A stretch of 64,000 nt of DNA from Candidatus Levyibacteriota bacterium (lineage in GTDB: Bacteria > Patescibacteriota > Microgenomatia > Levybacterales > GWA1-39-11): assembly GCA_036788695.1 (NCBI GenBank), contig DAIQMY010000001.1, forward strand, positions 150,792-214,791, in the 5' to 3' direction. Below are positions 1 to 34,519 of this stretch, piece by piece (position 1 is the stretch's first letter; every line of letters starts with the position of its first letter). The translations under genes were made by a program, and so were the position numbers. Under the pieces are notes generated by a model. The model saw only the letters and a list, made by a program, of their open reading frames with translations. It was not told the origin of the DNA and did no database searches.

Positions 1-2417
1 CAGGCGGGTGGAGGACCAAACGCTCCGCCGCAGTGCGCAATTAGATTGATTTGAAATAATCCTATACTGTAATCGGGGCATACCTTATTAGTAGCAAATG
101 GATCACTTCCACTTTCAAGGTTACAGATGAGTGAGGCAGTAAGTGCGAGGTCGGGTTGGTTATTAAAATATGGAAGGAGATGTTCATATGAGCAGTATCC
201 TGTTCCTTCTTTAGGTCTGGTGCAGGCATTGGGTGACTGGGAGCCTCCGGGTCCAGCTGTGGATGCGCTTGCTTGTGCCCAGGCAGAGTTTGTTATATTT
301 ATATCAGTTTTTACGGGAAGGACAGTAAAGGTAAATGATGATGCTGCGGCGTTTCCTGAATCTGAAAGATTCCATGACAGTGTGCGGTCAGTTGTGTCAA
401 GCGTATAATTTCCCGAAGTTTTATTATCAACAAGTATAGTATTTTCAGGAATTTGATCAAAAATAATAATATCCTCTTTCCTGACGGTTGAATCTGATGT
501 GAGGGTGTAGGAGATAGTATAGGTAATTTCTCCTATCTCAGCTAATTCTGTTTGTGAAACTGTTTTTTGTAGTGTGAAGCTTGGAATGGGGTTTTGCGTT
601 GGCGGCTGTCCCACGCCTCCCCCTCCCCCTGTCCCACCACCAATTGTGGAACTGCCTGAATTATCAGAGGCAATCGTGATTACAGTCATCACGAACACAA
701 TGAAGAGTAGAATTACGCATGATACGCCAACGGTTACCCCTCCTGCGGGCGTTTTAAGAAAAGTCAGAGCCACTTGACTTACTCCTTTTTTTGCAAGCTG
801 TTGCTCTCCTTTCTTTGCTGCAGATGATGCTGCTTTTTGTGCAGCCTTTTCTCTTAGGCTTTTTCCTAAGCTTCTATTCATGTTTGAAATAGTGGAAAAA
901 GGACTTCTGTCTCGCACGCCACTTCTAAGAATTCGTGATTGCATATGAGGCTGAGAAGTAGATTGGCTAGTTTTTCCTTCCTGTTTTTGTCTTTGTTCTC
1001 GCTGACGCTTATAAAAATCGTAGCTTACGGCTCCAAGTGGGGAGATGACATATCTTCCGTATTTCCAGGTCTTACTTTGCCAAACCTTTGCGTCTCTTAT
1101 TTTTCTTAGCAGCTCAAACCTATCAAAGCCATTTGCAGCAGCTTTTGTTAATATTTTATTGATCTCTATTTTTTGGTATTCCTTTGCAGTTTTTGGTTTT
1201 CTTGCCACCTGTTGCGGTTTATTTGGGGAAGCCGTTTTTTTGGGTAGTATTTTTTTAATTCCCACAACAAAAGAAGGCGGAATTAAATGTTTTGTTTTGC
1301 TATATAAAATCCCAAGAGGCGAATATTTATACACGTTTTTGTACCACTTGAGTGTGGTTGAGGCAGTTTTTTTTGTTGCGGCTAGTGTATTTGATTTTTT
1401 TTGCACTTTTTTTGTATGCAGACTGGTATTATTTTCCTCACTTTTTTCTGTTTTTTCTTTTTTTGAGATATTTCTGTCTGAAATCCCTGCCGCAATTTTT
1501 CGACCCAATTCCCATTCTTTTAAGCGAGGACTTAGTTTGCCCATGAGAAAGCCTAATGGAGTATACTTATATATATCCACATACCCCTTTGCCCCTTTTT
1601 TTGCAGCAGCCTTGAGTGTTTGTCCTGCTTTGGATGGAGTTTTTTTTGGAGTTGTAGGCGTGGGCGGTAACGGTTGTTTTATATTTTCCGGAGACGTGAT
1701 GTTTTTATCTAAATCTTGTGTGGAGGAATCCGTTTGTGAAATTGGTGTGGAGGGTGAATTTTCCGCGGGAGAACTTTGTGCAGATGCGATTTCTTGTGGT
1801 GAATTTGTTTGAGACTGATCAGATTTTGCCTCAGACTGGGCAGTCGTGGTATTAGGTGTGTTCGGGAGCGCTGCCTTTGCAATGGTCTGAGAAGTCTTGC
1901 CTATCTGTTCTTCGTAGTTTCGGTTTTCGTTTACCCTGAATGAGCTATCCTTTTCAAAGGATATAGATGAACTTTTACCAATCCCTCTTTCATTGGTTCC
2001 AGAAGATTCAGGGGGTGTCTTTGCTGATATATTTTCTTCACTTGCGTTTTCTTTTTTGTCTTCCCCATTTTCATTGTGTACCATGTGAACATTGCTATGT
2101 TCTGAGGCGTGCTCTCTCCCATGACCATCTTTCTTGTGGTCTTCTGTTTTTTGTTGGCTCGTTTCCTCCTCCTTTTTGTCTTCGGTATTTTCAGGTTCTA
2201 ACACAAGATTTTTGGTAGCTCGGGCTTTTTCTCTTTCTAGAATATTTATTTTCTTATGTATTTCTGTTTTCTGAGTTTCTCCTTCCTTTAGCGAAAGGGT
2301 ACCGTTTGTAACTGAATCCTCTATGTTGCGCTCGTTAGTCACAAGCTGCTTGATTGAGGAGTCTATATTTTTTATCTGATCCTCGGAAGTAGGGGGTGTA
2401 TCAGAATTGTTTGCCAT
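1..2417 (-). CDS. Partial (C-terminus runs off window edge) large membrane-anchored VirB1-like cell-wall hydrolase: N-terminal charged low-complexity region with three Y-x-Y-x-P-L-G repeats, one TM helix, DUF11-like conserved-repeat beta domain, C-terminal lysozyme-like/lytic transglycosylase motif
   Basis: Manually translated minus strand from ATG (complement of 2415-2417) down to position 1 with no stop (>805 codons). It is not in the ORF track because no stop lies inside the window. TM segment VALTFLKTPAGGVTVGVSCVILLFIVFVMTVITIA. C-terminal NLESGSDPFATNKVCPDYSIGLFQIN resembles the Glu-Ser catalytic and G-L-x-Q-I-N motifs of SLT/lysozyme-like folds. Start is 19 bp downstream of the VirB4 ATPase gene on the same strand. 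Confidence 0.5.
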   Translation of the reverse strand, partial: MANNSDTPPTSEDQIKNIDSSIKQLVTNERNIEDSVTNGTLSLKEGETQKTEIHKKINILEREKARATKNLVLEPENTEDKKEEETSQQKTEDHKKDGHGREHASEHSNVHMVHNENGEDKKENASEENISAKTPPESSGTNERGIGKSSSISFEKDSSFRVNENRNYEEQIGKTSQTIAKAALPNTPNTTTAQSEAKSDQSQTNSPQEIASAQSSPAENSPSTPISQTDSSTQDLDKNITSPENIKQPLPPTPTTPKKTPSKAGQTLKAAAKKGAKGYVDIYKYTPLGFLMGKLSPRLKEWELGRKIAAGISDRNISKKEKTEKSEENNTSLHTKKVQKKSNTLAATKKTASTTLKWYKNVYKYSPLGILYSKTKHLIPPSFVVGIKKILPKKTASPNKPQQVARKPKTAKEYQKIEINKILTKAAANGFDRFELLRKIRDAKVWQSKTWKYGRYVISPLGAVSYDFYKRQREQRQKQEGKTSQSTSQPHMQSRILRSGVRDRSPFSTISNMNRSLGKSLREKAAQKAASSAAKKGEQQLAKKGVSQVALTFLKTPAGGVTVGVSCVILLFIVFVMTVITIASDNSGSSTIGGGTGGGGGVGQPPTQNPIPSFTLQKTVSQTELAEIGEITYTISYTLTSDSTVRKEDIIIFDQIPENTILVDNKTSGNYTLDTTDRTLSWNLSDSGNAAASSFTFTVLPVKTDINITNSAWAQASASTAGPGGSQSPNACTRPKEGTGYCSYEHLLPYFNNQPDLALTASLICNLESGSDPFATNKVCPDYSIGLFQINLIAHCGGAFGPPPA

Positions 2418-2435: not shown

Positions 2436-4424
2436 TCATTCATTATTCACCTTGTTGTTATCTGTAACAGGAGACGTAATAGGCTGTTGTGTAATTGGTT
2501 GAGATGCCTGTGGAGTAGGTTTCATAGCGGGTTGCGTTAGAGGCGCTTCTGTAGGAGGAGCTTCCTGTTTTGCGTCTGCTTCTTTTATGAATTGTTCTGC
2601 TGCCTGCGTATTTGTTCGTTCTGCCTCATCCAAAATGTCTTGAGGTTTAGAGGTGACCAGTTGATACTCAAAGTTTGATGCCAAAAATTGAGCTGTTAAG
2701 TGGTTTTGCCCTGCAAAAAAAAGTCCCTCTCCAACCTGCGCTGTTAGCAGAAATTGCTTTTCACCTTCTGATAAGTTAAGGGTTGAGGCGAGCGTTTCTA
2801 CCTCAGATGAGTTTTGTTTTAACAGGACCTGCATAGAAGAATTAGATAAGATTGCCTTGCCATAGTCGGAAGACAGGAAATCTTCTATGTCTTGGGTAAG
2901 CGTTGTAACTCCCAGGTAATATTTTCGTGCTCGCTTTGCAATTCCTTGCAAGAATGCAGCAGAGTCAGGATTTTTCATAAGATACCATGCCTCATCTACT
3001 ATTAATATACGTTTTTTCAATTTAGTTCTTACTCTGTTCCAAATAAAATCTAATATTACCTGCATGGCGACTGGCCTAAGAGATTCTTCAAGCTGTTTTA
3101 TTGAAAAAACGGTAAGTTGATTTTTAACATCGTAGTTAGTCTGTGAGTTTAATAGTCCTGAGAACCCTCCTTTGATGTACTTTTCTAGTCTAAACGCAAG
3201 GTCCTTGGCATCTGTTTCTTCCATATTCAAAAGTGTTTTATATAAATCCTCAAGAATGGGTGGTTCATTGCCAAAAGTTGATGGGTCAGGGATTATCCCT
3301 TTTTGCTTGTAACACAAAACGAGCGCGCGGTCTAAAATTGCCTCCTGTGTTGGAGAGAATTCACCAAGCATAATCTTGAGAAGTGAGTGGAGGGATAAAA
3401 ACTTTATTCCAAGCTGCGCTTCTGATCTGTCATCTGAAAGAAGGGCAAACGGATTAATTTTTACCTCAGAGTCTTTTGAAAAAGATATGTATTCTCCATC
3501 GAGCGCATGGCAGAGTGCTTTATATTCATCCTCAGGATCTATGATGAGAATTTCTGTGTCAAACATCATTTGACGCAACACCTCAAGCTTAACTAGAAAT
3601 GATTTTCCAGAACCAGATTTCCCAAAGACAACAGAATTTGCATTCTCAAATGAGAAGCGATCCACAATGATAAGTGAATTATTTAGCGTGTTTACTCCAT
3701 AAAAAATACCGTTTGGTTGAGATATTTCATAGGATGTGAAGGGAAACGTTGAGGCAACGGATGTAGTATCCATGTTTCGGGTAATAAATAATTTATCCTC
3801 CCCCAGGGGGAGTGTTGTTTTAAATCCGTCCTCCATTTGAAGAGTAGCGGGTTTTATAACCAGCAAGTTTGAGGCAAGTAGGGAAGTGAGTTCATTCGTT
3901 TTCTTATCAAGTTCATCAACTGTTTTTGCTGAAAGTGTAACATAGAGTCCAAATTGAAAGAATCGTTCAAGTCCCCGCGCTAACTCTTCACGCAGGGCGA
4001 TCGCGTCCTCAAGGGATGCTCGAACCTTAGGATCAGGTTCTATGCCGTTTTTCATATCTGATTCAATCGTTGCTTCCATTTCTCCAATTTTGCGTTTCAA
4101 ATTGGAAAGAATATCCCGACTTTCAACTGGGTATATAAACATAGATACGTTCATGGTTTCCTTGTAGTCTATAAGTATAGAAAGCCAATTTGGAGAAACT
4201 TCGCGCGGATAGTCAATTACAATAAACGTTCGGTAGAAAGCGTCTCCTACGCGAATATATTTAAAATCTACCTCAACGGATGAGGGAGCAAGAAGATCTA
4301 TCAGAGACACAGACCCACTTTTTAATTTCCCAACATCGTGTGTGATTTGAGGTTGTGGTGCAGATTGAGCTGTTTGTGCAGGTGCACTTTTTTCTGTTTG
4401 TTTTTTCTTTCCTAGTCCTAGCAT
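2436..4424 (-). CDS. virB4: VirB4/TrbE/CagE-family T4SS ATPase, C-terminal ATPase portion (662 aa)
   Basis: Walker A VVFGKSGSGKSF and Walker B RILIVDEAWYL (the DEAW motif is typical of VirB4). N-terminal stretch LIDLLAPSSVEVDFKYIRVGD...YPREVSPNWLSIL resembles the VirB4 middle region. Own RBS AAAGGAG 9 nt upstream of ATG. Confidence 0.8.
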   Translation of the reverse strand: MLGLGKKKQTEKSAPAQTAQSAPQPQITHDVGKLKSGSVSLIDLLAPSSVEVDFKYIRVGDAFYRTFIVIDYPREVSPNWLSILIDYKETMNVSMFIYPVESRDILSNLKRKIGEMEATIESDMKNGIEPDPKVRASLEDAIALREELARGLERFFQFGLYVTLSAKTVDELDKKTNELTSLLASNLLVIKPATLQMEDGFKTTLPLGEDKLFITRNMDTTSVASTFPFTSYEISQPNGIFYGVNTLNNSLIIVDRFSFENANSVVFGKSGSGKSFLVKLEVLRQMMFDTEILIIDPEDEYKALCHALDGEYISFSKDSEVKINPFALLSDDRSEAQLGIKFLSLHSLLKIMLGEFSPTQEAILDRALVLCYKQKGIIPDPSTFGNEPPILEDLYKTLLNMEETDAKDLAFRLEKYIKGGFSGLLNSQTNYDVKNQLTVFSIKQLEESLRPVAMQVILDFIWNRVRTKLKKRILIVDEAWYLMKNPDSAAFLQGIAKRARKYYLGVTTLTQDIEDFLSSDYGKAILSNSSMQVLLKQNSSEVETLASTLNLSEGEKQFLLTAQVGEGLFFAGQNHLTAQFLASNFEYQLVTSKPQDILDEAERTNTQAAEQFIKEADAKQEAPPTEAPLTQPAMKPTPQASQPITQQPITSPVTDNNKVNNE

Positions 4425-4463
4425 GTTTTACAATAACTCCTTTTTGTCGTATGTAGCGTATTT

Positions 4464-5078
4464 CTACACAATAATATTTTTAACGTCACTTGTTGAAAAG
4501 TCCACATTCATGCTTGTCTGGTTGAAAAGTTCAAAAAATACTCGTCCTAACTCTTCAGCCTTAATGACTCTACTGGAAAGCCCTATTCGTTCAATTTGCG
4601 TCATAACATTTGTTCTCTTGCTAGCTATTGCATCCGCGGTGCGTGCTTCGTGCGTCTTTTTACTGCCTCCTGATGTTGGCCCTAGCTCGAGCGCATTAAA
4701 TGGGATTACCACATATGTTTTTTTATCTAGCAGCCCATCTTCTTTTATAAGTTCCTGGATGAAATCCTTGTAGAGCCTTAAGTGCTCAGCCACTCGTGCG
4801 TTTTGGGTAACGGTAATTTTGTGATCAAGAGATGAGACATATGATGAGAGATCAATTCTTTTGGAAACTATCACAATCTGGATTGCAAAAGAGAGAGAAT
4901 TTAAAAGCGACATATACCCATATATACGCGCGTTTTGTTCGTCTTGGGAAAGAAGAAAAAAGTTAACAGATGAAACTTCCAGGATAGAGCATGCATTTTT
5001 TCCTTTTAAAAATACCGTGTCATCCCGAATATCTTCGATCTCAATAAAGGATTGTGTTGTCGATTTAATTTTAGCCAT
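4464..5078 (-). CDS. Stand-alone VirB4 N-terminal (CagE_TrbE_VirB-like) domain protein, 204 aa
   Basis: IEIEDIRDDTVFLKGKNACSILEVSSVNFFLLSQDEQNARIYGYMSLLNSL resembles the N-terminal domain of Gram-positive VirB4 homologs (PrgJ/TcpF/TraE type). Sits directly upstream of the ATPase part on the same strand, separated by a TAG stop and a 39-nt spacer containing an RBS. Confidence 0.5.
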   Translation of the reverse strand: MAKIKSTTQSFIEIEDIRDDTVFLKGKNACSILEVSSVNFFLLSQDEQNARIYGYMSLLNSLSFAIQIVIVSKRIDLSSYVSSLDHKITVTQNARVAEHLRLYKDFIQELIKEDGLLDKKTYVVIPFNALELGPTSGGSKKTHEARTADAIASKRTNVMTQIERIGLSSRVIKAEELGRVFFELFNQTSMNVDFSTSDVKNIIV

Positions 5079-5086
5079 GGGCAGTT

Positions 5087-6154
5087 TTATAAAGTATTTT
5101 GTGCAACTCCAAACAATTCACGTCTTAATTTTTCGCGTTGGTCTACAGATATTACTTGAATAGGTTGAGCCACTGATCCATCAAGCGTTATTCTGGTATC
5201 TTGAAACTCTTGTTTTTTTAACGTGTCCTCAAGGTGCAGGGTATATGTTCCGCTTGGAAGTGGAGTTGCGGCTCTAAAAAAACCATTTGCGTCAGTTCGG
5301 AAGGTTCGGAGTGGAACGTTTTGCGTATCAAGCACTTCCACAATGATGTGGGGGAGCGGTTTTCCTCTTGGGTCAAGTATTTTGCCTTGTAAAATATTGG
5401 CTATGTCTATGCCTCCTACAGATACTTGAGAGGGTGCCACTGGAGGGGTTATCGGTTGCGTTTCAGCTACTGCATGAGGCGTAGGAGGAACAATTTGTGA
5501 TTGAGAAGCAGAAGATTCTGTTTGGCTTGTACTTTCCTGAACAGGAGGGACTGAAGTTTCCGTATGGGGAGCAGATAATTCCCCAGACGTTCCTTCTTGC
5601 GTGTGTATGGCAGAGGCTTGCGTTGTGGGAGTTTTTTCATCGGCCTTAATAACTCTATTCGTAAATCCGCCCTGCTGTGTTGTGCCATCTTTGAAGAGGT
5701 TGCTCACGTTTTCTACTTGAGACTTCTCATCAGCATCAGGCTTAAAATAAGAACTTGCAAGCTGATTAAAAAGTTTTGCTTTTTGTACTGCTGCGCTGTC
5801 TCCTGAATTTGAGTCAGTAACGTTAGTGTGCGACGGAGGGGTAAATGTAAAGTATGGCATTTGTACTCCGTGTTTTTTGTAAATATATTGATTTTCCGCG
5901 GGAATTGCCTTAAAGAAGTTAAAAAGCATCTTATCCATAGGTCTTCCATCAATAGGCACAAACGCAAGACAAAGCCCTACGCCTCCTGAGAGAAGCATAA
6001 AGGGAAGCTTTAGTAAAAACGGAATGGGGAAAAAATAGAACAAGAGTGCAAAAACCCCGCCACCTAAAAGATATAAAAATTGTTTTACCGTAACAGATCC
6101 TATAAGCCTAAATTTAAACCCTGTAACGTCTTGGGGGATAGGATGATTTTCCAT
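5087..6154 (-). CDS. VirB3/PrgI-like small T4SS membrane protein fused to a long Ser/Thr/Pro/Gln-rich linker and a C-terminal transthyretin/carboxypeptidase-regulatory-like beta-sandwich domain
   Basis: N-terminal FKFRLIGSVTVKQFLYLLGGGVFALLFYFFPIPFLLKLPFMLLSGGVGLCLAF gives two TM helices in the VirB3/PrgI arrangement. Position immediately upstream of VirB4 in the conserved VirB3-VirB4 order. C-terminal GKILDPRGKPLPHIIVEVLD...GTYTLHLEDTL resembles a prealbumin-like fold. Confidence 0.4.
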   Translation of the reverse strand: MENHPIPQDVTGFKFRLIGSVTVKQFLYLLGGGVFALLFYFFPIPFLLKLPFMLLSGGVGLCLAFVPIDGRPMDKMLFNFFKAIPAENQYIYKKHGVQMPYFTFTPPSHTNVTDSNSGDSAAVQKAKLFNQLASSYFKPDADEKSQVENVSNLFKDGTTQQGGFTNRVIKADEKTPTTQASAIHTQEGTSGELSAPHTETSVPPVQESTSQTESSASQSQIVPPTPHAVAETQPITPPVAPSQVSVGGIDIANILQGKILDPRGKPLPHIIVEVLDTQNVPLRTFRTDANGFFRAATPLPSGTYTLHLEDTLKKQEFQDTRITLDGSVAQPIQVISVDQREKLRRELFGVAQNTL

Positions 6155-8699: not shown

Positions 8700-9056
8700 T
8701 TAGAGTTTCTCTTCTGTTTTCGGAGGACTTGTGAGTTGGTTTAAGTCAACGCCCGTGAATTGAGACAAAAGGTTTATCATGACAAATGACATCATGATAA
8801 TAACTAGCCCAATAATTGCATAGGTAAGTCTTTTTCTGGCATTGTCCACTTTTTCTTTATCCCCTGAAGACGTTACATATTGGTAGCCTGAGTAAATGAT
8901 AAGAAATACGGCAACTACGCCGGATAGGACTAGTGCTGCATTAATTACATTTTGTAAGACAATCCATATGCAGGATATGGTAGCTACTCCTGTTGCATCT
9001 GGAATTCCCTCCAATGGTCTTACACATTCTCCCCAATCTTCTGTGAATAAATCCAT
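8700..9056 (-). CDS. T4SS pilin-like small membrane protein (VirB2/TrbC-type, T4SS_pilin family), paralog 3
   Basis: Two hydrophobic helices flanking the loop YVTSSGDKEKVDNARKRLTYAIIGLVII. The same architecture and motif recur in three neighbouring genes. Confidence 0.6.
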   Translation of the reverse strand: MDLFTEDWGECVRPLEGIPDATGVATISCIWIVLQNVINAALVLSGVVAVFLIIYSGYQYVTSSGDKEKVDNARKRLTYAIIGLVIIMMSFVMINLLSQFTGVDLNQLTSPPKTEEKL

Positions 9057-9121
9057 GTGCTATTAGCATAAAACAAATGTGAAAGATAATTCAAGAGGAA
9101 AGGTGTAAGTAGGCACCGTAC

Positions 9122-9577
9122 TTATTGGCTAGTATTCCGAAGTGTAGGTATTTCAAACCCAGAAGTAAGGTAATTACCGGTAAAGATGTAAAGGACTGCG
9201 TTTATGATAACGTAGGCTAATATAACTATGATAAGTCCTACAATTGCTGCAACTATTGTAGAGCGTGCAGTATCAATTTTTCCTTTATCTCCGCCTGAAA
9301 GAATCCATCGAACGCCTCCATACAAAAGGAAAATAAGGGATAAAACAATTCCGATAATTATAATAGCGTTTATAATAAAAGCAATCAGTTGATTTGGTGA
9401 CACGTCAATATTCCCGATTGATTTAGGTGACTTAATTATTATAGGTTCAATATTCTGAGCAAATGCAGGGGTCGCTAGAACGGACATAAGAAGTGAGCCA
9501 AATGATACTGAGGCGGTATTTATTATTTTTTGCAAACTCATATGATTAATTAGAACATGTTTTTTTTTGCATGTCAA
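9122..9577 (-). CDS. T4SS pilin-like small membrane protein, paralog 2, with an N-terminal Sec-type signal peptide
   Basis: Core IFLLYGGVRWILSGGDKGKIDTARSTIVAAIVGLIIVIL. The track start at 9577 is TTG. An in-frame ATG at 9541 gives MSLQKIINTASVSFGSLLMSVLATPAFA-QN, a classic signal peptide. Confidence 0.6.
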   Translation of the reverse strand: MTCKKKHVLINHMSLQKIINTASVSFGSLLMSVLATPAFAQNIEPIIIKSPKSIGNIDVSPNQLIAFIINAIIIIGIVLSLIFLLYGGVRWILSGGDKGKIDTARSTIVAAIVGLIIVILAYVIINAVLYIFTGNYLTSGFEIPTLRNTSQ

Positions 9578-9583
9578 TAAGCG

Positions 9584-9913
9584 TTATTGTTTTCCTATGT
9601 CTTGTAGGACTTGCGCGCCCAGGAGTAAGCCCACAATTCTTACAATGATAAAGGATAGGAGGATAATAATAAGCCCTACTATTGCGTACGTGATAGTGCG
9701 TCTTGCGCGGTCCAGTTTTGCCTTATCTCCTTGAGACGTAATCCATAAAACTCCCGCGTATAAAAGAAAAATAAGAGACGCAATAATGCCTATGGTAACG
9801 AACAGTCCTAATCCGAAGTTAATAATATCAGATGGGGCGTTTGCGCCTGATGGGATATTTTCAGGTGTTTGCACGTCTCCATATCCGGGTATTTTTAAAG
9901 ATAAGTATTTCAT
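9584..9913 (-). CDS. T4SS pilin-like small membrane protein, paralog 1
   Basis: Core IFLLYAGVLWITSQGDKAKLDRARRTITYAIVGLIIILL. Its ATG directly abuts the stop of the upstream pilin-like frame (TAATATG). Confidence 0.6.
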   Translation of the reverse strand: MKYLSLKIPGYGDVQTPENIPSGANAPSDIINFGLGLFVTIGIIASLIFLLYAGVLWITSQGDKAKLDRARRTITYAIVGLIIILLSFIIVRIVGLLLGAQVLQDIGKQ

Positions 9914-9914
9914 A

Positions 9915-10401
9915 TTATTGAAAGCCTGGTATTCGCAAAATGTTTATACCTATAAACTCAAGTATCGCAATTGAGAGAATAATAAATATTAGTCCAGTGA
10001 TTGCTGCGGTTATTTGTTCCCGTGCTTGACCCACTTTTTCTTTGTTTCCCGCAGATGTCATGATGGTATATCCTGCGCGGATAAAGAAAAGGAGAGCTGC
10101 AACTCCTCCGATTGAGAGTACTATGGTAAAAATATCACGTACAAAAAATTGAGGCTCTGTGCTGATCTTTATTCCAAGTGCTGTTGGAATTTTTTTGCAA
10201 TACCCAGTTGTCTGATCTATATCTTGCTTATCGCAAAGCGCTCGGGGTTGAGACCATGGAATTGCAACTCCTAACTCTTTGCCATATGGATCTTTTATTG
10301 CTGTGCCTATTGTTCCTGTTTCTCCGCCGCTTGCTATTGTAAGCGGAATAAAGTAGTAGGTGAAATCGTTTTGTTCGCAGGTAAAAGTGTTTCCATTTTT
10401 T
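9915..10401 (-). CDS. Fourth T4SS pilin-like domain in an open frame of ~160 codons that lacks any ATG/GTG/TTG start; likely the C-terminal domain of a fusion with the upstream secreted protein via a -1 shift at an A8 tract, or else a pseudogene
   Basis: Manual translation of the minus strand gives ...KKIPTALGIKISTEPQFFVRDIFTIVLSIGGVAALLFFIRAGYTIMTSAGNKEKVGQAREQITAAITGLIFIILSIAILEFIGINILRIPGFQ*, which matches the pilin paralogs. The frame stays open upstream to a TAA at about 10423 and overlaps the last 20 codons of the 419-aa ORF in the -1 frame. The only in-frame Met lies inside the TM helix. Confidence 0.45.
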
Positions 10402-11598: not shown

Positions 11599-12930
11599 TT
11601 ATGGAAGAAAGCGGTATCCTCTACCTTTTATAGTAGTAAGATGTGTCGGGTTGTTTGGGTCTTCTTCAATCTTTCGTCTGACTCTGTATATGATTTGATC
11701 AAGTGCTTGGTCGGTCACGCCCTCACGTGTCTTTTCATCTGACCATACAGACTCTATTATTTCCTCTTTTGTACACACCTTATCAGTGTTTTGAATTAAA
11801 AACCGTAACAGTTTAAATTCTGATGGTGAGAGTATATCCGTTAGCGACTCGTTCCCTGCTTTTATTTCTTGAGTATCTGTGTCAAATGTTATTTTCTCAG
11901 TTGCGGGGTGTGGAAAGTGGGACAGATTTTTTTCAAATAAAGGAATTTGAATTTCTCCGTTCTGAACAAGATAAGAGTATTGCAGAAAAGAATCTTTTGG
12001 AGTATCTTTTGGGGATTTGAGAAGTATTTTTTGCTCAATTGGTATAAGCGAATTCCATATTTCAGTCAAAGCTCCTTGAATTGCAGCTTTTGAAAGTAAA
12101 AAAGTTGCCATATCCGCGTGCTTTCCCTCTTGAGCAAGCACAGTTTCAAGGGCTATTCTGGATAATTTTCCATGTCCCCCTGTAAGTTTTATAATTTCTT
12201 TGTGCGTTGCAGGACTAACCGTTCTTCCGCTCGTTTTCTCAAGATAGGCAAAGCGGAAAGCATTCGCCTCAGCGTCACAAAGGGGAAGGAAAACGTGGTT
12301 TCCTACGACAAATTCATAGAAATCCCCGTATATGCTAGGTTCCAATAACTCCTCAAGCGGTCGTTCTAGGGAGAAAACGCAAGAAAATCTATATTTTGCC
12401 CTATTTCGTAAAACATGCAAATCTGTAAAAAAAGAAGAACTTATCTGTGGGAAATAGGTGTCAAATCTATCAAAGAGAAGAACTACGGTTAGCTCCCGCT
12501 CTATAGACAAATAGTCTATGGCACGTTTTAACGCCTGAAAAAGTATTAATTCATCCTGAAAAGAAATCGCCTCCTTGAGAATGTTGTTTACCGCCTCTTG
12601 TTCTTCCTCCATCTTCCGTTCTGAAAAAGAGTAGGAAAGGGAGATAAGAATAAATTTTATTAGTTCGTAAAAATTTCTTCCCTTAATCTCTGATAGATCC
12701 ATATAGACAAAGTGGTACCATTTATAGTTTTCTCCTAGGTGAAGAACGCGCAAGGGATTATTGTAGGCTAAAAGCCGCAAGACGTTTGAACGACCAACTC
12801 CAGGAAGGCCGACAACTTGCGCGGAGTTTCCCTTTTGAACGTATGAGAGAATTTTATCTATCTCATGTGTCCTGGAGGATGGAGGATAAAGAGAGTCAAA
12901 ATGCATGGGTTCTGAGGCTAAAGTAGTCAT
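11599..12930 (-). CDS. Putative transcriptional regulator: N-terminal P-loop NTPase-like domain (AAA/STAND-like) plus C-terminal OmpR/PhoB-type winged-helix DNA-binding domain
   Basis: P-loop-like VVGLPGVGRSNVL. C-terminus TKEEIIESVWSDEKTREGVTDQALDQIIYRVRRKIEEDPNNPTHLTTIKGRGYRF matches the trans_reg_C winged-helix signature (W...V.V.I.RLR.K...........I.TV.G.GYR). Confidence 0.55.
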   Translation of the reverse strand: MTTLASEPMHFDSLYPPSSRTHEIDKILSYVQKGNSAQVVGLPGVGRSNVLRLLAYNNPLRVLHLGENYKWYHFVYMDLSEIKGRNFYELIKFILISLSYSFSERKMEEEQEAVNNILKEAISFQDELILFQALKRAIDYLSIERELTVVLLFDRFDTYFPQISSSFFTDLHVLRNRAKYRFSCVFSLERPLEELLEPSIYGDFYEFVVGNHVFLPLCDAEANAFRFAYLEKTSGRTVSPATHKEIIKLTGGHGKLSRIALETVLAQEGKHADMATFLLSKAAIQGALTEIWNSLIPIEQKILLKSPKDTPKDSFLQYSYLVQNGEIQIPLFEKNLSHFPHPATEKITFDTDTQEIKAGNESLTDILSPSEFKLLRFLIQNTDKVCTKEEIIESVWSDEKTREGVTDQALDQIIYRVRRKIEEDPNNPTHLTTIKGRGYRFLP

Positions 12931-13003: not shown

Positions 13004-16000
13004 ATGAATGAAAGATTTTTGCCACAAGAATTGACAGCAGGAAGGGTATCTTCTACACTTAATGTAAGGAGTACTATGCCAGAGCCACAAAAAGAAGAAC
13101 CTATTGTTCTCAAAAAAAATGAAGTGCATCCTCCCAGGATAAGTAATTCTCCACGACCAGAATCAATACAAGAGCTTATGCAAAGTCAGGCAGAACGTGA
13201 GGCGGCACGAGCCATAATGGAAGAGGCTCGGAAGCAAGGAAAAACATTATCTGAGGATGAAAAAAAAATGATTCTTGCTTCAGGAATTAAATTTCCTATT
13301 TTTGGAGGCGCTGATGTGCCAGAAAATGATTCTTATAATCCAGACAGTGAAGACAGTGAAGAAAACCAGGGCGGAGAGGTTATAAGAAGGGGTTTTGAGC
13401 TGCGACCCCCACGTGATCACGCCCATAACCCGCAACTCCTTGATGAGATAGAAAAATTTAATAGGGTAGCTGAGTTGGGTGTTGATTTTGATGATCTCAA
13501 ACGCGAGGCAGATAAAATCATGAATCTTCAGTCGTTAGACCCAAACAATCCGATTACATCTGAGCAAAGACAAGACCTTATAAGACAGCTTTCTAAGAAA
13601 GGACAAGAGATTGCGGAAGCAAGAATGAATAATCCAGACAGGTTTGGTTTTTACCTTGAAACCCAAGACTTACGAGAATTGGATGATGATCCTATAGCAT
13701 GGCTAGATTCTCAATTTGGTCAAATATACAATTTGTCTAGATTGGGGAATGAGTTAGATTCTCCCGCTTTGCAGCGTGCGCAGACAGAAGTACAAGAAGC
13801 ATCTGCATATCTCCTGAAGAGATTTGGAAAATTCAGAAAAGAGGGGATTAAAAATGCCAAAGACGTTGATCAGGCAAATCAGGATAGTAAGTTGTTGTTG
13901 GAATTTAATGAAACATTTATGATCAGGTTAAACCTCATTTTTGCCAGAACAGCAATTGATCAAAGAAATATGGAGCAAATACAGGGCGCAGTTGGAAGAC
14001 TAAGAACTTTAGGTTTTGCCGGAGCCCAAGCTTTTGACAATGGAGCAGTTGGTGCTATGTATAACCGTATGGAGGCGATGCTTGGGAATTTGCGGCTTGC
14101 AGAAGGTGGGCGTGAGCATCACCTTAATCCTATGTCTTTAAACAAGTTGCAGGAAAGAACTATAGACGAGCAGATAAAACTTGCAAAAGAAGGCGTAGGT
14201 ATATTTGCCGATAGATATAAGGATATCCTGTTGGATCCAAAGAAACGGTTGAATGCTGATGACGTATTAAAACGCGAGATAATCAGGTCTGTTAGAACAG
14301 CATACGATATTTTAGTTGTATCCCAGAGAGTAGCAATAGTTGCCGCTCGCGGTAATTATAGAGGAGACAGGCAGCAGTACTTCTCTGATAATGGTGGTGC
14401 TTTTGCTGTATTTAACTTGGAACAAATGACTATTAATAAGTGGGACCTATTAAATCATGAGGAGCAGGAGTTCTTTGATTTTCTCAAGCTTGACATGGCT
14501 ATTAATAATAAAAAAGGAGTAGATGTATCCGGGTTGACGCGTGAACAATTATTAGACTTAGGAGGAAGGCTATTTAGGGATCTGTATGTAGTTCCTGATT
14601 TTTATTCATCATCCTGGAGAATGAATGGAATGAGGGATCAGTTGGGGAGGGTAATTCAGTATAGGGCTGAAAACGACAAAATGATTGAGAAGTTGATAGA
14701 AGATCCTAATTTTACTCCCGCTGATGAAAGACTAGTGGAGTTGCAACGGCAAATGAGGGCAGACAAAGAAAGTTATATGAAGGCATGGGATGAGCGTAAT
14801 CCTTCAAATAGAATATTGCCGGGAGATCGCGAAATTGCGCAAAGACAATTTTCCCGCCAAATGTTTGAGAAAGTCTTAACCCGTGACCAAAGAGAGCTAT
14901 GCCTGAGAGTTCTGACACCGGACGACATGATGGATGTTATAAATGTTGCAATAAAAAAAGCCGGTACGCAGTTAGGAAAAGAGGTTGGAGACTTTGCTCT
15001 GTTTGTACAGTTGAAGCAAAGTTTGGGACATTTAGGACATCGCTCTGGATCACCGGAAGATATACGTAAAGAGACACGTAACTACAGGACTGAAGTTTGG
15101 GAAAAGATTCAAAAATTTAAAACAGAGGATGTTATACAGTTGATAAGAGGTCGGGCACGACCAGATATATACACGGAAGACTACAATAACTTGCGTGAGT
15201 TATATACGCTTTTTGAGAAAAATGATCCAGAATTGGGAGTACTAACTAATGAGCAGAAAGAATTGCAAAAAACGGGGGGCATAGAAGCATTTCATACATA
15301 TGATAGGTTTATTGAGAAATACGGTTCAGTAATTCAGGCAGTACGTCAAGACGCAATGCGAAACAGCTTAACTGGTCCAGAGCAGGTAGATATGACCAAT
15401 CTAAACCCTCGACAGATTGAAATGGTTAACAGAATGCTAGGGAATGGAGCAGCGGTTACTCTCCAAAATATCTATAAGGACATGAACAAATTTATAAATC
15501 GTCACGGTATTGTCAAGGAACTTGTGACAAGCCATAAGTACATAGATCTTTACAATAGAGTAATAAACGTAGAGGATGTAATGCTTGACACATTAGAATC
15601 AATACCTGAAAACGCGAGCTTCCAGAAGTTATCAGATTATTTCACTGCAGAGTCAGGAGCAGATGCCTTAAAACGAAACTTTAATGATATAGGAAATGCG
15701 GTGAATGCAGGGAACGCATTTATTAAATTTATCACAACTGAAGACAAGGAAGGAAGATTTAAAGAATCCAAAGTTATGAAAGGCGCTGTGGAGGCGTATA
15801 ATGGTCGCGGAAACGGTGCTGAAGTTATGCGATTTACCTATGGAACAGAATTATTATATTCTCTGCAGTACTATTGGGTTAATATGTTGCGTTTAGGTGC
15901 ACTTCCGTTAAGAAAGCCAACCTCAGTGAAGCAGGAGCATTATGGAATTGGAGCAAAATCCTTAACCAGAGAAGATGTCCGTGGAGATTTGGATCATCAC

Positions 16001-16195
16001 AAAACAGAATTTGTAGGACGAGGAGCAGATGCTGATCAGTGGTTTGTCCAATTAGAGGAGCTAACAGGGACAGATATGGAATCTACAATGAAGAGAAATG
16101 CGCTAACACTTCTGATATATGCGTTCTTGGGGATAGTGGTAGGAGCGCCGGTTGGGGCTGCGGCAGCAGCACTGGCAGGAGCGCAGAAAGGATAA
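13004..16195 (+). CDS. Very large hypothetical protein (1063 aa), charged and mostly helical, with an extreme C-terminal hydrophobic tail (LLIYAFLGIVVGAPVGAAAAALAGA); unknown function
   Basis: Uninterrupted 3.2 kb ORF with ATG start, divergent from the regulator gene. No recognisable enzymatic motif. Confidence 0.55.
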   Translation: MNERFLPQELTAGRVSSTLNVRSTMPEPQKEEPIVLKKNEVHPPRISNSPRPESIQELMQSQAEREAARAIMEEARKQGKTLSEDEKKMILASGIKFPIFGGADVPENDSYNPDSEDSEENQGGEVIRRGFELRPPRDHAHNPQLLDEIEKFNRVAELGVDFDDLKREADKIMNLQSLDPNNPITSEQRQDLIRQLSKKGQEIAEARMNNPDRFGFYLETQDLRELDDDPIAWLDSQFGQIYNLSRLGNELDSPALQRAQTEVQEASAYLLKRFGKFRKEGIKNAKDVDQANQDSKLLLEFNETFMIRLNLIFARTAIDQRNMEQIQGAVGRLRTLGFAGAQAFDNGAVGAMYNRMEAMLGNLRLAEGGREHHLNPMSLNKLQERTIDEQIKLAKEGVGIFADRYKDILLDPKKRLNADDVLKREIIRSVRTAYDILVVSQRVAIVAARGNYRGDRQQYFSDNGGAFAVFNLEQMTINKWDLLNHEEQEFFDFLKLDMAINNKKGVDVSGLTREQLLDLGGRLFRDLYVVPDFYSSSWRMNGMRDQLGRVIQYRAENDKMIEKLIEDPNFTPADERLVELQRQMRADKESYMKAWDERNPSNRILPGDREIAQRQFSRQMFEKVLTRDQRELCLRVLTPDDMMDVINVAIKKAGTQLGKEVGDFALFVQLKQSLGHLGHRSGSPEDIRKETRNYRTEVWEKIQKFKTEDVIQLIRGRARPDIYTEDYNNLRELYTLFEKNDPELGVLTNEQKELQKTGGIEAFHTYDRFIEKYGSVIQAVRQDAMRNSLTGPEQVDMTNLNPRQIEMVNRMLGNGAAVTLQNIYKDMNKFINRHGIVKELVTSHKYIDLYNRVINVEDVMLDTLESIPENASFQKLSDYFTAESGADALKRNFNDIGNAVNAGNAFIKFITTEDKEGRFKESKVMKGAVEAYNGRGNGAEVMRFTYGTELLYSLQYYWVNMLRLGALPLRKPTSVKQEHYGIGAKSLTREDVRGDLDHHKTEFVGRGADADQWFVQLEELTGTDMESTMKRNALTLLIYAFLGIVVGAPVGAAAAALAGAQKG

Positions 16196-16207
16196 AACAT
16201 AAAAATT

Positions 16208-17932
16208 TTATCTTCCAAGCATTCCTTTAAAGAATTTTTTCGCTCCTCCAATAGCTTCAGGTGTGGTTGATCCGGCTTTATATTCTGCCTTTGCTCCAAA
16301 CGCCATTTCTTTGACACCACTAATACCTTTTCCTCCTACTGCCTGGGAAGCGCCAAAGGATGTCCTAATATCTTTTAGTCCAAAGTCCATAGCGCCAACT
16401 GCCTTTCGGGTTCTATCAAGTATACTTGGCATGGATATGATAAAGCCAAAGCCTATAAATGCCGCTATAGCAGGACTTCCGCCGACCGCGTCACCTATAA
16501 GCGGAGGAGAGAAGAGCCCACCTTGACTTCCTACGTTGCTCATAATTGTTTTCCCAAGTAATATTACGCCAAACGCCATAGGAAAAACTGATAAATGGCC
16601 CATGAGATGCCGTATCCAACTAGAAAATCCTAATTTACTTCCCGGAAATATTCCAGCAGTTATCCAGAGGGGAGCAACTATTACATCTATGAGAACATAG
16701 ATAAAAGATTTTATAAGCGTAAACCATACGCGGAACAATGAGAATATAATAGCAATGAGTATTATTAAAAATGTAACAATAGTAAAAAGGCTGATAATCG
16801 CTGCCCTGAAGAACGATTCAACAAAATTACACCCTCCTCCCGCAAACAACCCTCCTATGGGCGTATCCCTTAGCCATCCTCCCAATCCTGGCACATATCC
16901 CAATGCTCCTACGCCCGCTGTGACCCCAATTTTCCCTAGATCTACGACTCCACACCCAATAGAGCTGACGGCATTAAAGGGGGTGAAGAAGACCTGGAAA
17001 AAAGATGAGATGGTAGACTCTAAAAAGTCTATTGAGATATTTCCTAAAACCTTGCTAATGCCCCAGGAAGTTTGCCCGGCGATCCCTATAATTCCGGGAA
17101 TATGATTTATACCGCTCAGATTTGGTGTGTCTATACTAAATGATTTGTTTACTACGCCAAATACGGTAGAGGAGGTGCTAACATTTGTTGGTATAAGACT
17201 ATTAAATGTTAGAATAACAAGATAAAGGGTCACATACATAAAATCTATAAGAAGTCCGGCGATTGCGTAAGAAAAAGTGACTAAAATAAGCGCTATTATC
17301 ATTTTGGGGATTTGGTTTTGAATACTCATAACCGTACGTGCATCAATTTTTACCCTGAACATAATTGCAAGTCCCACAATAGTAAACCCTAAAACAAAGG
17401 CGAGGTATGCAATATCTCTAAATCGTGCCCATATTCCAACAAGCGGTCGTAACCTGTCAAATCCTACTCCGTTTTCTTTAGGGTCATTCTCTGCGTAAGC
17501 GCTGCGTGCTACGCCAAAGTTTCCTGCCATATATGCTGCGTAGTCCACTCCGGATACTGGTAGAGTAAAGGTTTCACCTATAAGTCTTCCCATGACCTGT
17601 GTTGCTCCTCCTCCTTGGGCCTCATATCCTATTTGTCCACTTTTTAGATCTACCCCCAAACAGGTTTTTTTTGGGTCTAGAGGGTTATATCCTGAAAGCA
17701 CGCAGACTGTGCTTGCTAGTGTATTGATGAGTGTCGCTTGAGTAAGCGTATTAAGATTTTGAGGAACTTGAGGGTTAACATTTCCATACAGCATTTGATT
17801 ATTCATTGTTGCGACAGTTGGATAGGTAGTTGCAGAAGGAGTAATTATGGGTGCTTGAGCAAGAATGGGTTTTATACTGCTTGCAATAAGAAAGAAGACA
17901 AGAACGTACAGAATATGTTTTAGTTTTCTCAT
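16208..17932 (-). CDS. Polytopic membrane protein, VirB6/TrbL-like candidate, with a signal peptide and an N-terminal extracytoplasmic domain followed by at least six TM helices
   Basis: Internal ATG at 17932 gives signal peptide MRKLKHILYVLVFFLIASSIKPILAQA (the track start at 17977 is TTG). Multiple long hydrophobic helices and Gly-rich loops, and its position in a T4SS-like island. Family assignment is by architecture and context only. Confidence 0.4.
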   Translation of the reverse strand: MRKLKHILYVLVFFLIASSIKPILAQAPIITPSATTYPTVATMNNQMLYGNVNPQVPQNLNTLTQATLINTLASTVCVLSGYNPLDPKKTCLGVDLKSGQIGYEAQGGGATQVMGRLIGETFTLPVSGVDYAAYMAGNFGVARSAYAENDPKENGVGFDRLRPLVGIWARFRDIAYLAFVLGFTIVGLAIMFRVKIDARTVMSIQNQIPKMIIALILVTFSYAIAGLLIDFMYVTLYLVILTFNSLIPTNVSTSSTVFGVVNKSFSIDTPNLSGINHIPGIIGIAGQTSWGISKVLGNISIDFLESTISSFFQVFFTPFNAVSSIGCGVVDLGKIGVTAGVGALGYVPGLGGWLRDTPIGGLFAGGGCNFVESFFRAAIISLFTIVTFLIILIAIIFSLFRVWFTLIKSFIYVLIDVIVAPLWITAGIFPGSKLGFSSWIRHLMGHLSVFPMAFGVILLGKTIMSNVGSQGGLFSPPLIGDAVGGSPAIAAFIGFGFIISMPSILDRTRKAVGAMDFGLKDIRTSFGASQAVGGKGISGVKEMAFGAKAEYKAGSTTPEAIGGAKKFFKGMLGR

Positions 17933-18029
17933 AGGGCAGGTAGTTTTAGTATGGCTCAAAAAGCAACAAAAAGTCAAGGAATATATAAGTAGGGGTTTTT
18001 ATTGACAACTATATATAAAACAGGGTATC

Positions 18030-31018: not shown

Positions 31019-31078
31019 GGGAGTAATAATAATAACAATTTTTACCTATGCTTACAACCCGGGGAAGGAGGTTGTGGG

Positions 31079-31150
31079 TGGGCGCGGCAGGATTTGAACC
31101 TGCGACCAATTGTGTATAAGACAACCGCTCTACCACTGAGCTACACGCCC
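31079..31150 (-). tRNA. tRNA-Ile with anticodon UAU (decodes AUA), 72 nt
   Basis: Reverse complement GGGCGTG-TA-GCTC-AGTGGTA-GAGC-G-GTTGT-CTTATAC-ACAAT-TGGTC-GCAGG-TTCAAAT-CCTGC-CGCGCCC-A. Clean cloverleaf with a 7-bp acceptor stem, U33, anticodon TAT, A37 and discriminator A. Confidence 0.7.
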
Positions 31151-31205
31151 AAAAACGAAACTGTGGTAAATTATAGCACGAGAAAGGTAAATATTCGATT
31201 CGTAA

Positions 31206-34411: not shown

Positions 34412-34496
34412 GGAGAGGTCGCATAGTGGTCTAGTGCAGCGGTTTACTAAACCGCCGTATCGCAAGATACCGAGAGTTCGAATCTCTCCCTCTCCG
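34412..34496 (+). tRNA. Class II Ser-type tRNA with apparent anticodon ACU (atypical); paralog of the tRNA-Ser(UGA) at 35456
   Basis: GGAGAGG-TC-GCA-TAGTGGTCTAG-TGC-A-GCGGT-TTACTAA-ACCGC-(variable arm GTATC-GCAA-GATAC)-GAGAG-TTCGAAT-CTCTC-CCTCTCC-G. The 5-bp GC-rich anticodon stem forces a TTACTAA loop, giving positions 34-36 as ACT. Confidence 0.55.
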
Positions 34497-34519
34497 CATT
34501 ATTATAATTCTCTTCTTTT

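Follow-up and report, generated by a model that had tools for sequence, protein, structure and literature searches.

A TrsD-like protein and a short VirB4 ATPase as colinear equivalents of one VirB4 in a chromosomal T4SS of Candidatus Levybacteria

Is a VirB4 gene that is divided by a stop codon a broken gene, a recoded gene, or two genes whose products make up one motor? A 64,000-nt stretch of a Ca. Levyibacteriota assembly (GCA_036788695.1, contig DAIQMY010000001.1, positions 150,792 to 214,791; hereafter the window) raises this question, since its initial annotation described a VirB4 encoded as an N-terminal domain protein plus an ATPase protein. We found that the locus is a chromosomal T4SS of a Ca. 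Levybacteria bacterium (Patescibacteria/CPR) with PrgI, a TrsD-like protein, VirB4 and a pilin array. The gene run lies on the minus strand and begins with a 355-aa PrgI-family (VirB3-like) membrane protein (5087..6154), which matches Pfam PrgI (E 9e-8), carries a C-terminal CarboxypepD_reg domain (E 5e-9) and has transmembrane-like segments. Only 8 nt separate the end of this gene from the 204-aa ORF (4464..5078), which is followed by a 39-nt spacer (4425..4463) and the 662-aa ORF of the short VirB4 ATPase (2436..4424). The next gene of the run (1..2417) starts with an ATG 18 nt past the VirB4 stop, is cut by the window start and gave no family match; it encodes 863 aa in the related locus L005. 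Part of the same T4SS neighbourhood is an array of VirB2-like pilins on the minus strand (8700..10061; 118, 151 and 109 aa plus a 48-aa partial ORF), which match Pfam T4SS_pilin (PF18895) with E 6e-12, 6e-7, 2e-6 and 3e-3; such arrays have been described in Microgenomatia (PMC12102498). A T4CP-like ORF of 810 aa with a TraG-D_C match lies far from virB4 (31206-33638), and no relaxase was seen among the scanned window ORFs. The order PrgI, TrsD-like protein, VirB4 recurs in related loci (L001, which adjoins dnaN, L005-L013 and L016/L017), in pCBG and in pSK41, where TrsC takes the place of PrgI.

At the junction, the 204-aa ORF ends in TAG (4466-4464), a spacer of exactly 39 nt follows (4463-4425), and the motif AAAGGAG (4443-4437) precedes an ATG at 4424-4422, in line with the initial description; the distance from the end of this motif to the ATG is 12 nt rather than the 9 nt given before. 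The two ORFs share one frame in the window, and a further in-frame stop (TAA, 4430-4428) lies within the spacer; hence, neither a frameshift nor a single read-through could join them. With assembled contigs as a proxy for raw reads, the exact 204-aa product and the same 39-nt junction recur on at least 20 contigs whose assemblies and sequencing runs are independent (including ENA ERZ794922 and Logan SRR32119618, SRR12762304 and SRR32380200). Across independent assemblies, the junction is identical or near-identical. Hence, it is not an assembly error, a frameshift or a pseudogene, and the earlier reading of a genuine two-gene arrangement holds. A relative at 94% identity has a 37-nt spacer and one at 59% identity a 121-nt spacer; with lengths of 13, 37, 39 and 121 nt, the relative frame of the two ORFs is not conserved. 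Each gene has its own stop, Shine-Dalgarno motif and ATG, and the N-terminus MLGLGKKK is conserved. A promoter and terminator scan of the coding strand in and around the spacer found nothing above chance and no terminator-like site. These sequence features point to separate translation of the two genes.

The 204-aa protein had been called a CagE/TrbE-type N-terminal domain; the Pfam model of that name (CagE_TrbE_VirB, PF03135) does not match it. Similarity to VirB4 N-terminal domains was nevertheless found when sought, so that the underlying claim of homology to the N-terminal part of VirB4 stands: the protein matches positions 100-232 of 894 in the NCBIfam model VirB4_plasma (E 2.3e-10), and by BLASTP it aligns to residues 4-174 of the 754-aa Carboxydocella VirB4 (E 1e-17). 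It also matches the NCBIfam TrsD/TraD model NF041427 over positions 13-200 of 201 (E 1.1e-5) with 25.4 bits, against a curated cut-off of 200; it is thus homologous to, yet outside, the narrow Firmicutes subfamily named by that model. It belongs to PF26593 ('TraC-like'): database records assign this family to the identical product (E <= 1e-5, not marked as weak) and to nearly all of its homologues. Searches of a Pfam set without PF26593, of PHROGs and of PDB sequences gave nothing useful, and the absence of PF26593 from that set accounts for the zero local Pfam matches. The hhalign comparison of the window family with pSK41 TrsD gave a probability of 81% (E 1.2e-5, 171 columns), and the layout is that of TrsD/TraD, a small soluble protein whose gene has a VirB3-like gene before it and a short VirB4 gene after it. 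A paper on TraC/TraD of the pELF plasmid was set aside as a source, its TraD being VirD4. In the PDB, the top 14 matches of the AlphaFold2 model (pLDDT 75.5) are all TrwK/VirB4 chains (E 2e-4 to 5e-3, probability 1.0), and the next have E > 0.09. The protein is TrsD-like, the counterpart of the first ~180-200 residues in single-chain VirB4.

The 662-aa ORF consists of a disordered lead-in (residues 1-39), a second N-terminal module (residues ~40-250), a C-terminal ATPase domain up to residue ~595 and a disordered P/Q/T-rich tail. It carries Walker A GKSGSGKS at residues 268-275 (window 3600-3623) and a DEAW motif. We found that it is a VirB4 ATPase of the CD1110 type (MPF_FATA-related): it matches NCBIfam conju_CD1110 with 426 bits (cut-off 325) over positions 169-731 of 752, Pfam P-loop_TraG (E 6e-37) and AAA_10, and the VirB4 C-terminal domain in PDB 4ag5 (E 2e-46); Foldseek gave a target-normalised TM-score of 0.82 to the same fold in 4ag6. 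The Pfam CagE_TrbE_VirB model reaches only 20.4 bits against a threshold of 21 (E 5e-4, residues 153-206), and it is recorded for several close VirB4 homologues. A 100%-identical protein of a Ca. Levybacteria MAG is named 'ATP-binding protein' at NCBI. The proposal that membrane-interaction and ATPase modules are made separately is not supported: transmembrane-like segments are absent from both products (over 19 residues, hydropathy peaks at 1.47 in the 204-aa and 1.18 in the 662-aa product, versus 2.03 in the neighbouring PrgI protein), and ~210 residues of the N-terminal domain remain on the ATPase polypeptide. The separate gene holds only the first of two N-terminal modules.

In one and the same NCBIfam VirB4 model, the 204-aa product covers positions 100-232 and the 662-aa product positions 292-892. 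Residues 40-594 of the 662-aa ORF align to residues 183-744 of the Carboxydocella VirB4 (E 8e-74), so that the two products lie in order along a single-chain VirB4 and do not overlap. Compared with each other they show no similarity; hence, they are not a duplication. By these alignments, the pair is the colinear equivalent of one canonical VirB4, with no overlap between its two parts. A model of the two products as one chain (pLDDT 72, with a disordered linker at residues 190-241) superposed on full-length TrwK with a TM-score of 0.60-0.68 over ~890 alignment columns, a predicted fit that has to be read with the proximity that one chain forces on the two parts, which counts against taking it as pair assembly. 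In the hhalign comparison of the fused family with single TrwK, the alignment began only at the end of the second N-terminal module; hence, TrsD residues were mapped to TrwK by extrapolation, and on that basis TrwK residues ~1-200 have no counterpart in the 662-aa ORF. In the model, secondary-structure elements follow one another in a similar order in both N-terminal modules, and since a fold match alone cannot pick the TrwK module, the assignment of the 204-aa protein rests on colinearity. An origin of the VirB4 N-terminal domain by tandem duplication of a TrsD-like module is a possibility; hhalign between the two modules gave a probability of 4.5% (E 0.009, 45 columns), and we did not adopt the idea for lack of significant sequence support.

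We found 391 Levybacteria homologues of the 204-aa protein (200-227 aa, E down to 1e-115) and 2,623 representative clusters of homologues, which places the feature far beyond chance. Codon comparison with an orthologue at 94% identity gave 70 synonymous and 12 non-synonymous differences, and the arrangement is conserved under purifying selection. None of the best 120 VirB4 homologues contains a TrsD-like module. Natural single-chain fusions of TrsD and VirB4 (780-900 aa) occur in Ca. Amesbacteria; one of them (P0393) was found on at least 24 contigs, at the same PrgI-linked locus beside HepT/MNT genes. The split form (217 + 641 aa) is retained in Amesbacteria relatives with 78-88% identity in the VirB4 part. 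The working alignment comprises the natural full-length fusions only, as MAFFT misaligned mixtures of the concatenated window products with separate TrsD and VirB4 homologues.

The split had also been judged uncommon, and this does not fit the published record, in which it is the standard layout in Patescibacteria and also occurs in pGO1/pSK41-type Gram-positive systems and pCBG; being usual and already published there, it is ordinary. Quiñonero-Coronel et al. (2025, PMC12102498) reported 2,272 TrsD homologues (1,664 of these adjoining virB4) in 2,221 of 3,035 assemblies, remote homology of TrsD to the VirB4 N-terminus, and TrsD as the most abundant T4SS component in Patescibacteria; they do not discuss exact colinear complementarity, TrsD-VirB4 fusions or inteins. 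The term "TrsD" is absent from the main text of Guglielmini et al. (2014, PMC4027160), which the 2025 paper cites for the TrsD-VirB4 homology. The Patescibacteria T4SS (PMC12102498; Wang et al. 2023, PMC10633639) has the same set of VirB4, TrsD, PrgI/VirB3 and pilin arrays, with TrsD adjoining virB4, the T4CP-like gene far off and a chromosomal location. It does not differ essentially from the window, which is one case of what the 2025 survey covers.

The pSK41/pGO1 systems (MPF_FATA, pGO1 subclass) share with the window the order of a VirB3-like protein (TrsC or PrgI), a soluble protein of ~200-230 aa and a VirB4 of ~660-670 aa. The pSK41 proteins TrsD and TrsE have 227 and 672 aa, compared with 204 and 662 aa here, and residue 35 of TrsE aligns to residue 42 of the 662-aa ORF, which is the same split point; TrsD and the window protein are very remote, at 20% identity. 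Moreover, pSK41 is a conjugative plasmid without pilins, whereas the window is chromosomal and has a VirB2-like pilin array. The pair TraD and TraE of pIP501 is placed with the TrsD and TrsE family by NCBIfam name, and Clostridium botulinum pCBG has the same layout as the window. Single-chain forms include R388 TrwK (823 aa), CTH_10029 of Carboxydocella pCCELLA01 (754 aa) and the fused Amesbacteria proteins (~790 aa); the two window products together cover the whole of such a protein in order, as two polypeptides with ~40 disordered residues starting the ATPase, where the fused forms have a short linker. The VirB3-VirB4 fusions of some conjugative systems, cited in PMC12102498, show that the series VirB3, VirB4 N-terminus and VirB4 core is modular with unchanged gene order; they join VirB3 to VirB4, whereas the window separates within VirB4 and keeps PrgI apart.

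Two ORFs in the same frame, 39 nt apart, would fit a VirB4 gene broken by a recent nonsense mutation, or by a sequencing or assembly error. Against this stand the two in-frame stops, the identical junction on at least 20 contigs from independent runs, the strong purifying selection on the small ORF, the same split point in pSK41, and the persistence of the split, with varying spacer length, down to 54% identity in hundreds of genomes; the conservation data have already refuted this explanation, and we give it practically no weight. The shared frame would also suit programmed read-through or recoding that yields one fused VirB4, which we regard as extremely improbable: both TAG and TAA would have to be suppressed, the 37-nt and 121-nt spacers of relatives place the ORFs out of frame, the junction stop of L001 is TAA, and all three stop codons (TAG, TAA, TGA) terminate ordinary window ORFs, while a conserved Shine-Dalgarno motif and ATG stand before a conserved N-terminus.

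A more serious alternative, unlikely in our judgement, is that the TrsD-like protein works independently, in an accessory or regulatory capacity, and merely shares ancestry with the VirB4 N-terminus, without structurally completing the short VirB4; it might serve as adaptor, assembly chaperone or regulator and possibly act through disordered tails. Many homologues do have long low-complexity tails (300-700 aa in total length), and disordered tails of 100-500 residues count against a sole role in completing VirB4 and hint at roles beyond it. In Gracilibacteria, moreover, TrsD homologues mostly do not adjoin virB4 (PMC12102498), which counts against reading the two proteins as a pair. An accessory factor would leave unaccounted for a short VirB4 that lacks exactly the segment TrsD supplies, the natural covalent fusions at the orthologous locus, the superposition of the one-chain model on full-length TrwK and the tight synteny across phyla.

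We therefore prefer, as very probable, a two-gene VirB4 motor, in which the TrsD-type protein of 204 aa and the 662-aa core rejoin non-covalently. The two genes would be co-transcribed and each translated on its own, the first product carrying the first N-terminal module of VirB4 and the second carrying the second module and the ATPase domain. The two polypeptides would then associate into a VirB4-like protomer, with the TrsD-like module probably at the membrane-proximal end of the motor, where it would contact the VirB3-like PrgI encoded upstream or join the contacts that N-terminal domains make between VirB4 subunits. N-terminal domains alone form the interface of the VirB4 dimer in the R388 structure, and VirB3 wraps around this domain of VirB4 (PMC9259494). 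It is also conceivable, if rather doubtful, that the joint between the first module and the rest of VirB4 is evolutionarily labile, having been fused and split repeatedly within Patescibacteria, and that a separate subunit, often with a long disordered tail, may tune docking of the VirB4 motor on PrgI/VirB3 or its stoichiometry; if true, such tuning would give these cells a level of regulation that single-chain systems lack.

The split VirB4 locus is thus real and already known: the Gram-positive prototype of TrsD beside VirB4 dates back to pGO1, and both the adjacency of TrsD and virB4 in Patescibacteria and the homology of TrsD with the VirB4 N-terminus appeared in print in 2025. What is added here is only the exact colinearity and the recurrent fusion and fission. 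The public names 'hypothetical protein' and 'ATP-binding protein' would be better replaced by TrsD-type N-terminal and core subunits of VirB4. In structural models and constructs of the Patescibacteria T4SS, the TrsD-like subunit should go with VirB4 and PrgI, and a single-chain design is at hand in the natural Amesbacteria fusions. In the one organism tested, epibiotic growth requires the Patescibacteria T4SS, and PMC12102498 lists the TrsD homologue of Ca. S. epibionticum as essential.

We found that VirB4 is encoded by two separately initiated, co-oriented genes on the minus strand, whose products together equal one VirB4. The first encodes a 204-aa TrsD-like protein (4464-5078) and stops with TAG at 4466-4464; the ATG of the second, which encodes a 662-aa VirB4 (2436-4424), is at 4424-4422, leaving a spacer of exactly 39 nt. 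The spacer contains AAAGGAG at 4443-4437, and 12 nt separate the end of this Shine-Dalgarno (SD) motif from the VirB4 ATG, not the 9 nt of the initial annotation. Both genes belong to a tightly packed run, with a 355-aa PrgI-family protein (5087-6154, minus) stopping 8 nt ahead of the 204-aa ORF and another ORF (1-2417, minus; cut by the window start) starting 18 nt past the VirB4 stop. In a promoter/terminator scan, there was no terminator-like site between the two genes on the coding strand, and promoter-like matches there were at chance level only. The ORF at 1-2417 (at least 805 aa in the window, 863 aa in the related locus L005) has no Pfam match and lies directly 3' of VirB4 in all related loci; it could be a T4SS component not yet recognised as such. 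At its C-terminus the PrgI/VirB3-like protein has a CarboxypepD_reg (Ig-like) domain, and in two Amesbacteria contigs the PrgI region (L016, 3385-4337; L017, 3396-4337) is annotated either as a single protein of 313 aa or as a pair of 172 and 110 aa, which is a further split/fused pair or an assembly difference.

Frameshift, read-through of a stop, assembly error and duplication are all rejected as explanations of the arrangement. The two ORFs do share one frame, and the spacer adds an in-frame TAA (4430-4428) to the TAG; hence, they could not be connected by a frameshift or by reading through one stop, in line with the initial annotation's view that this is no simple frameshift. Independent assemblies and sequencing runs supply at least 20 contigs with the identical 204-aa product, each with the VirB4 gene 39 nt on, and stop, SD and ATG are all kept in the junction alignment despite SNPs close by. 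A VirB4 of 100% identity is also present in NCBI, from a Ca. Levybacteria MAG. In relatives, the spacer is 37 nt in a 94%-identical orthologue (GCA_017992235), 121 nt with a TAA stop in a 59%-identical orthologue, and 13 nt in an Amesbacteria relative; hence, the two-gene state is conserved and the relative frame is not. The small ORF differs from the 94% orthologue by 70 synonymous and 12 non-synonymous codons, and its 391 homologues, annotated mostly as Candidatus Levybacteria, are about 200-227 aa long. The domain of the small protein is absent from all of the top 120 VirB4 homologues. The two-gene junction is thus not an artefact. As for duplication, the two window proteins show no similarity to each other, which indicates that VirB4 has been divided.

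Along the single-chain VirB4 of Carboxydocella pCCELLA01 (754 aa), the 204-aa protein aligned with residues 4-174 (E 1e-17) and residues 40-594 of the 662-aa protein with residues 183-744 (E 8e-74). By these alignments, the pair divides one VirB4 colinearly. When 1.84 billion representatives were searched with a small-protein profile, 2,623 clusters were returned; most are of stand-alone proteins, and long disordered Q/P/T/S-rich tails are frequent among them. Many TrsD-like homologues of other Patescibacteria (e.g. P0133, P0154, P0178, P0215, P0257) carry 100-500-residue disordered C-terminal tails beyond the ~200-aa domain; in the window, comparable low-complexity stretches are found at the two ends of the VirB4 ORF instead. 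Among the clusters, P0140 (787 aa) genuinely fuses the two parts, its residues 209-776 matching window VirB4 residues 41-605. Used as a query, P0140 led to a family of natural fusions from Candidatus Amesbacteria, 56-100% identical and 780-900 aa long, with PF26593 plus P-loop_TraG; one Amesbacteria fusion, P0393, lies directly after PrgI on at least 24 contigs. Relatives with a VirB4 part 78-88% identical are still split at that locus, into proteins of 217 and 641 aa, and the same HepT/MNT pair adjoins fused and split loci. When genes are fused at an orthologous locus, this is a classical indication that the parts function together.

The 662-aa ORF is, by its profile matches, a VirB4: it scored 426 bits with NCBIfam conju_CD1110 (cut-off 325), covering only positions 169-731 of 752, and matched Pfam P-loop_TraG and AAA_10. 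Its Walker A motif, GKSGSGKS, is at residues 268-275, and its C-terminal domain matched PDB 4ag5 (E 2e-46). CagE_TrbE_VirB and TraC_F_IV were matched weakly by residues 128-207, at the ends of both N-terminal-domain models; hence, this polypeptide retains the later portion of VirB4's N-terminal domain, whereas roughly the first 170-200 residues are missing. The CagE/TrbE label initially given to the 204-aa ORF therefore belongs with the larger ORF. The 204-aa ORF had no match in the local Pfam copy and is PF26593 'TraC-like' by precomputed annotation; it matched NCBIfam TrsD/TraD (positions 13-200 of 201, E 1.1e-5) and VirB4_plasma (positions 100-232 of 894, E 2.3e-10), a model whose positions 292-892 are matched by the 662-aa ORF. 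PrgI has transmembrane-like segments and neither VirB4 product has one, so the earlier idea of a separately made membrane-interaction module is not demonstrated. VirB4 homologues of 1,158-1,215 aa in Patescibacteria (P0428, P0429, P0432, P0438, P0439, P0480, P0482, P0491, P0507) contain PF14890 Intein_splicing and PF14528 LAGLIDADG_3, suggesting genes interrupted by inteins.

For the 204-aa protein, AlphaFold2 gave a model with pLDDT 75.5 from an alignment of 75 sequences; its best 14 PDB matches were all R388 T4SS TrwK/VirB4 chains (probability 1.0, E 2e-4 to 5e-3, TM-score 0.42-0.49 when query-normalised), and every other match had E > 0.09. A one-chain model of both products, with the natural fusions as alignment (pLDDT 72; linker residues 190-241 disordered), superposed on full-length TrwK with TM-scores of 0.60-0.68 over about 890 alignment columns. 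With ~730 residues ordered in the model, we judge such scores difficult to attain without the first module lying approximately where it does in TrwK, and we infer this placement. In this model (m865e10f775dd), residues 1-190 and 245-410 (662-aa ORF residues 41-206) have nearly the same secondary-structure order, namely three strands, then strand-helix-helix-strand-helix-strand-helix, which suggests an ancient tandem duplication inside the VirB4 N-terminal domain; profile-profile comparison of the two modules, which aligned 45 columns at equivalent positions, did not reach significance (probability 4.5%, E 0.009).

Elsewhere in the window, a tandem array of three VirB2-like pilin genes (118, 151 and 109 aa; PF18895) lies at 8700-10061 (minus); its 48-aa ORF at 9915-10061 (minus) covers just the C-terminal half of the pilin model and may be a truncated copy or have a mis-called start. 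Between the array and a nearby 443-aa protein (11599-12930, minus) stands a 419-aa ORF; the 443-aa protein has an OmpR-type winged-helix DNA-binding domain at its C-terminus (Trans_reg_C, E 7e-21) and an AAA_16/STAND-like NTPase region that scores weakly, below threshold. No Pfam match was obtained for two large ORFs next to the T4SS genes (13004-16195, plus, 1,063 aa; 16208-17977, minus, 589 aa). ARAGORN called tRNA-Ile(TAT) at 31075-31151 (minus) and tRNA-Ser(ACT), adjoining tRNA-Ser(GCT), at 34412-34497 (plus), and Rfam confirms a tRNA at each position; these anticodons are unusual for bacteria. A T4CP-like 810-aa ORF (31206-33638, minus; TraG-D_C, E 1e-5) may be a VirD4-like coupling protein, its ~27 kb distance from virB4 being as reported for other Patescibacteria. 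The pilin array, this distant ORF and the chromosomal context (RNR, UvrD, MurJ, tmRNA, tRNAs) fit the picture of Quiñonero-Coronel et al. (PMC12102498).

The initial observation is real once its strand, SD spacing and domain label are corrected, and reading it as a genuine two-gene VirB4 is correct in substance. The split had been supposed to be uncommon, but such arrangements are widespread and have been described before: TrsD is the most abundant Patescibacteria T4SS component (2,272 homologues in 2,221 assemblies), 1,664 being associated with virB4 (PMC12102498). That survey assigns TrsD no function, lists a homologue as essential in Ca. Southlakia epibionticum, and does not mention TrsD-VirB4 fusions, exact complementarity or inteins, which are small additions to the published picture. 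In pSK41, TrsC (VirB3-like), TrsD (227 aa) and TrsE (VirB4, 672 aa) follow the window order with a 14-nt spacer; TrsD aligns with the window family (hhalign E 1.2e-5, 171 columns), and TrsE starts at the same point of the VirB4 fold as the 662-aa ORF. In C. botulinum pCBG, PrgI is accompanied by a 257-aa 'TraC family protein' and an ATPase of 620 aa.

The two products would assemble non-covalently into a VirB4-like protomer, the TrsD-like module taking the place of TrwK residues ~1-200. The order VirB3-like, TrsD-like, VirB4 is common to Levybacteria, Amesbacteria, pCBG and pSK41, which fits a small subunit that may dock the ATPase onto PrgI or mediate VirB4-VirB4 contacts.
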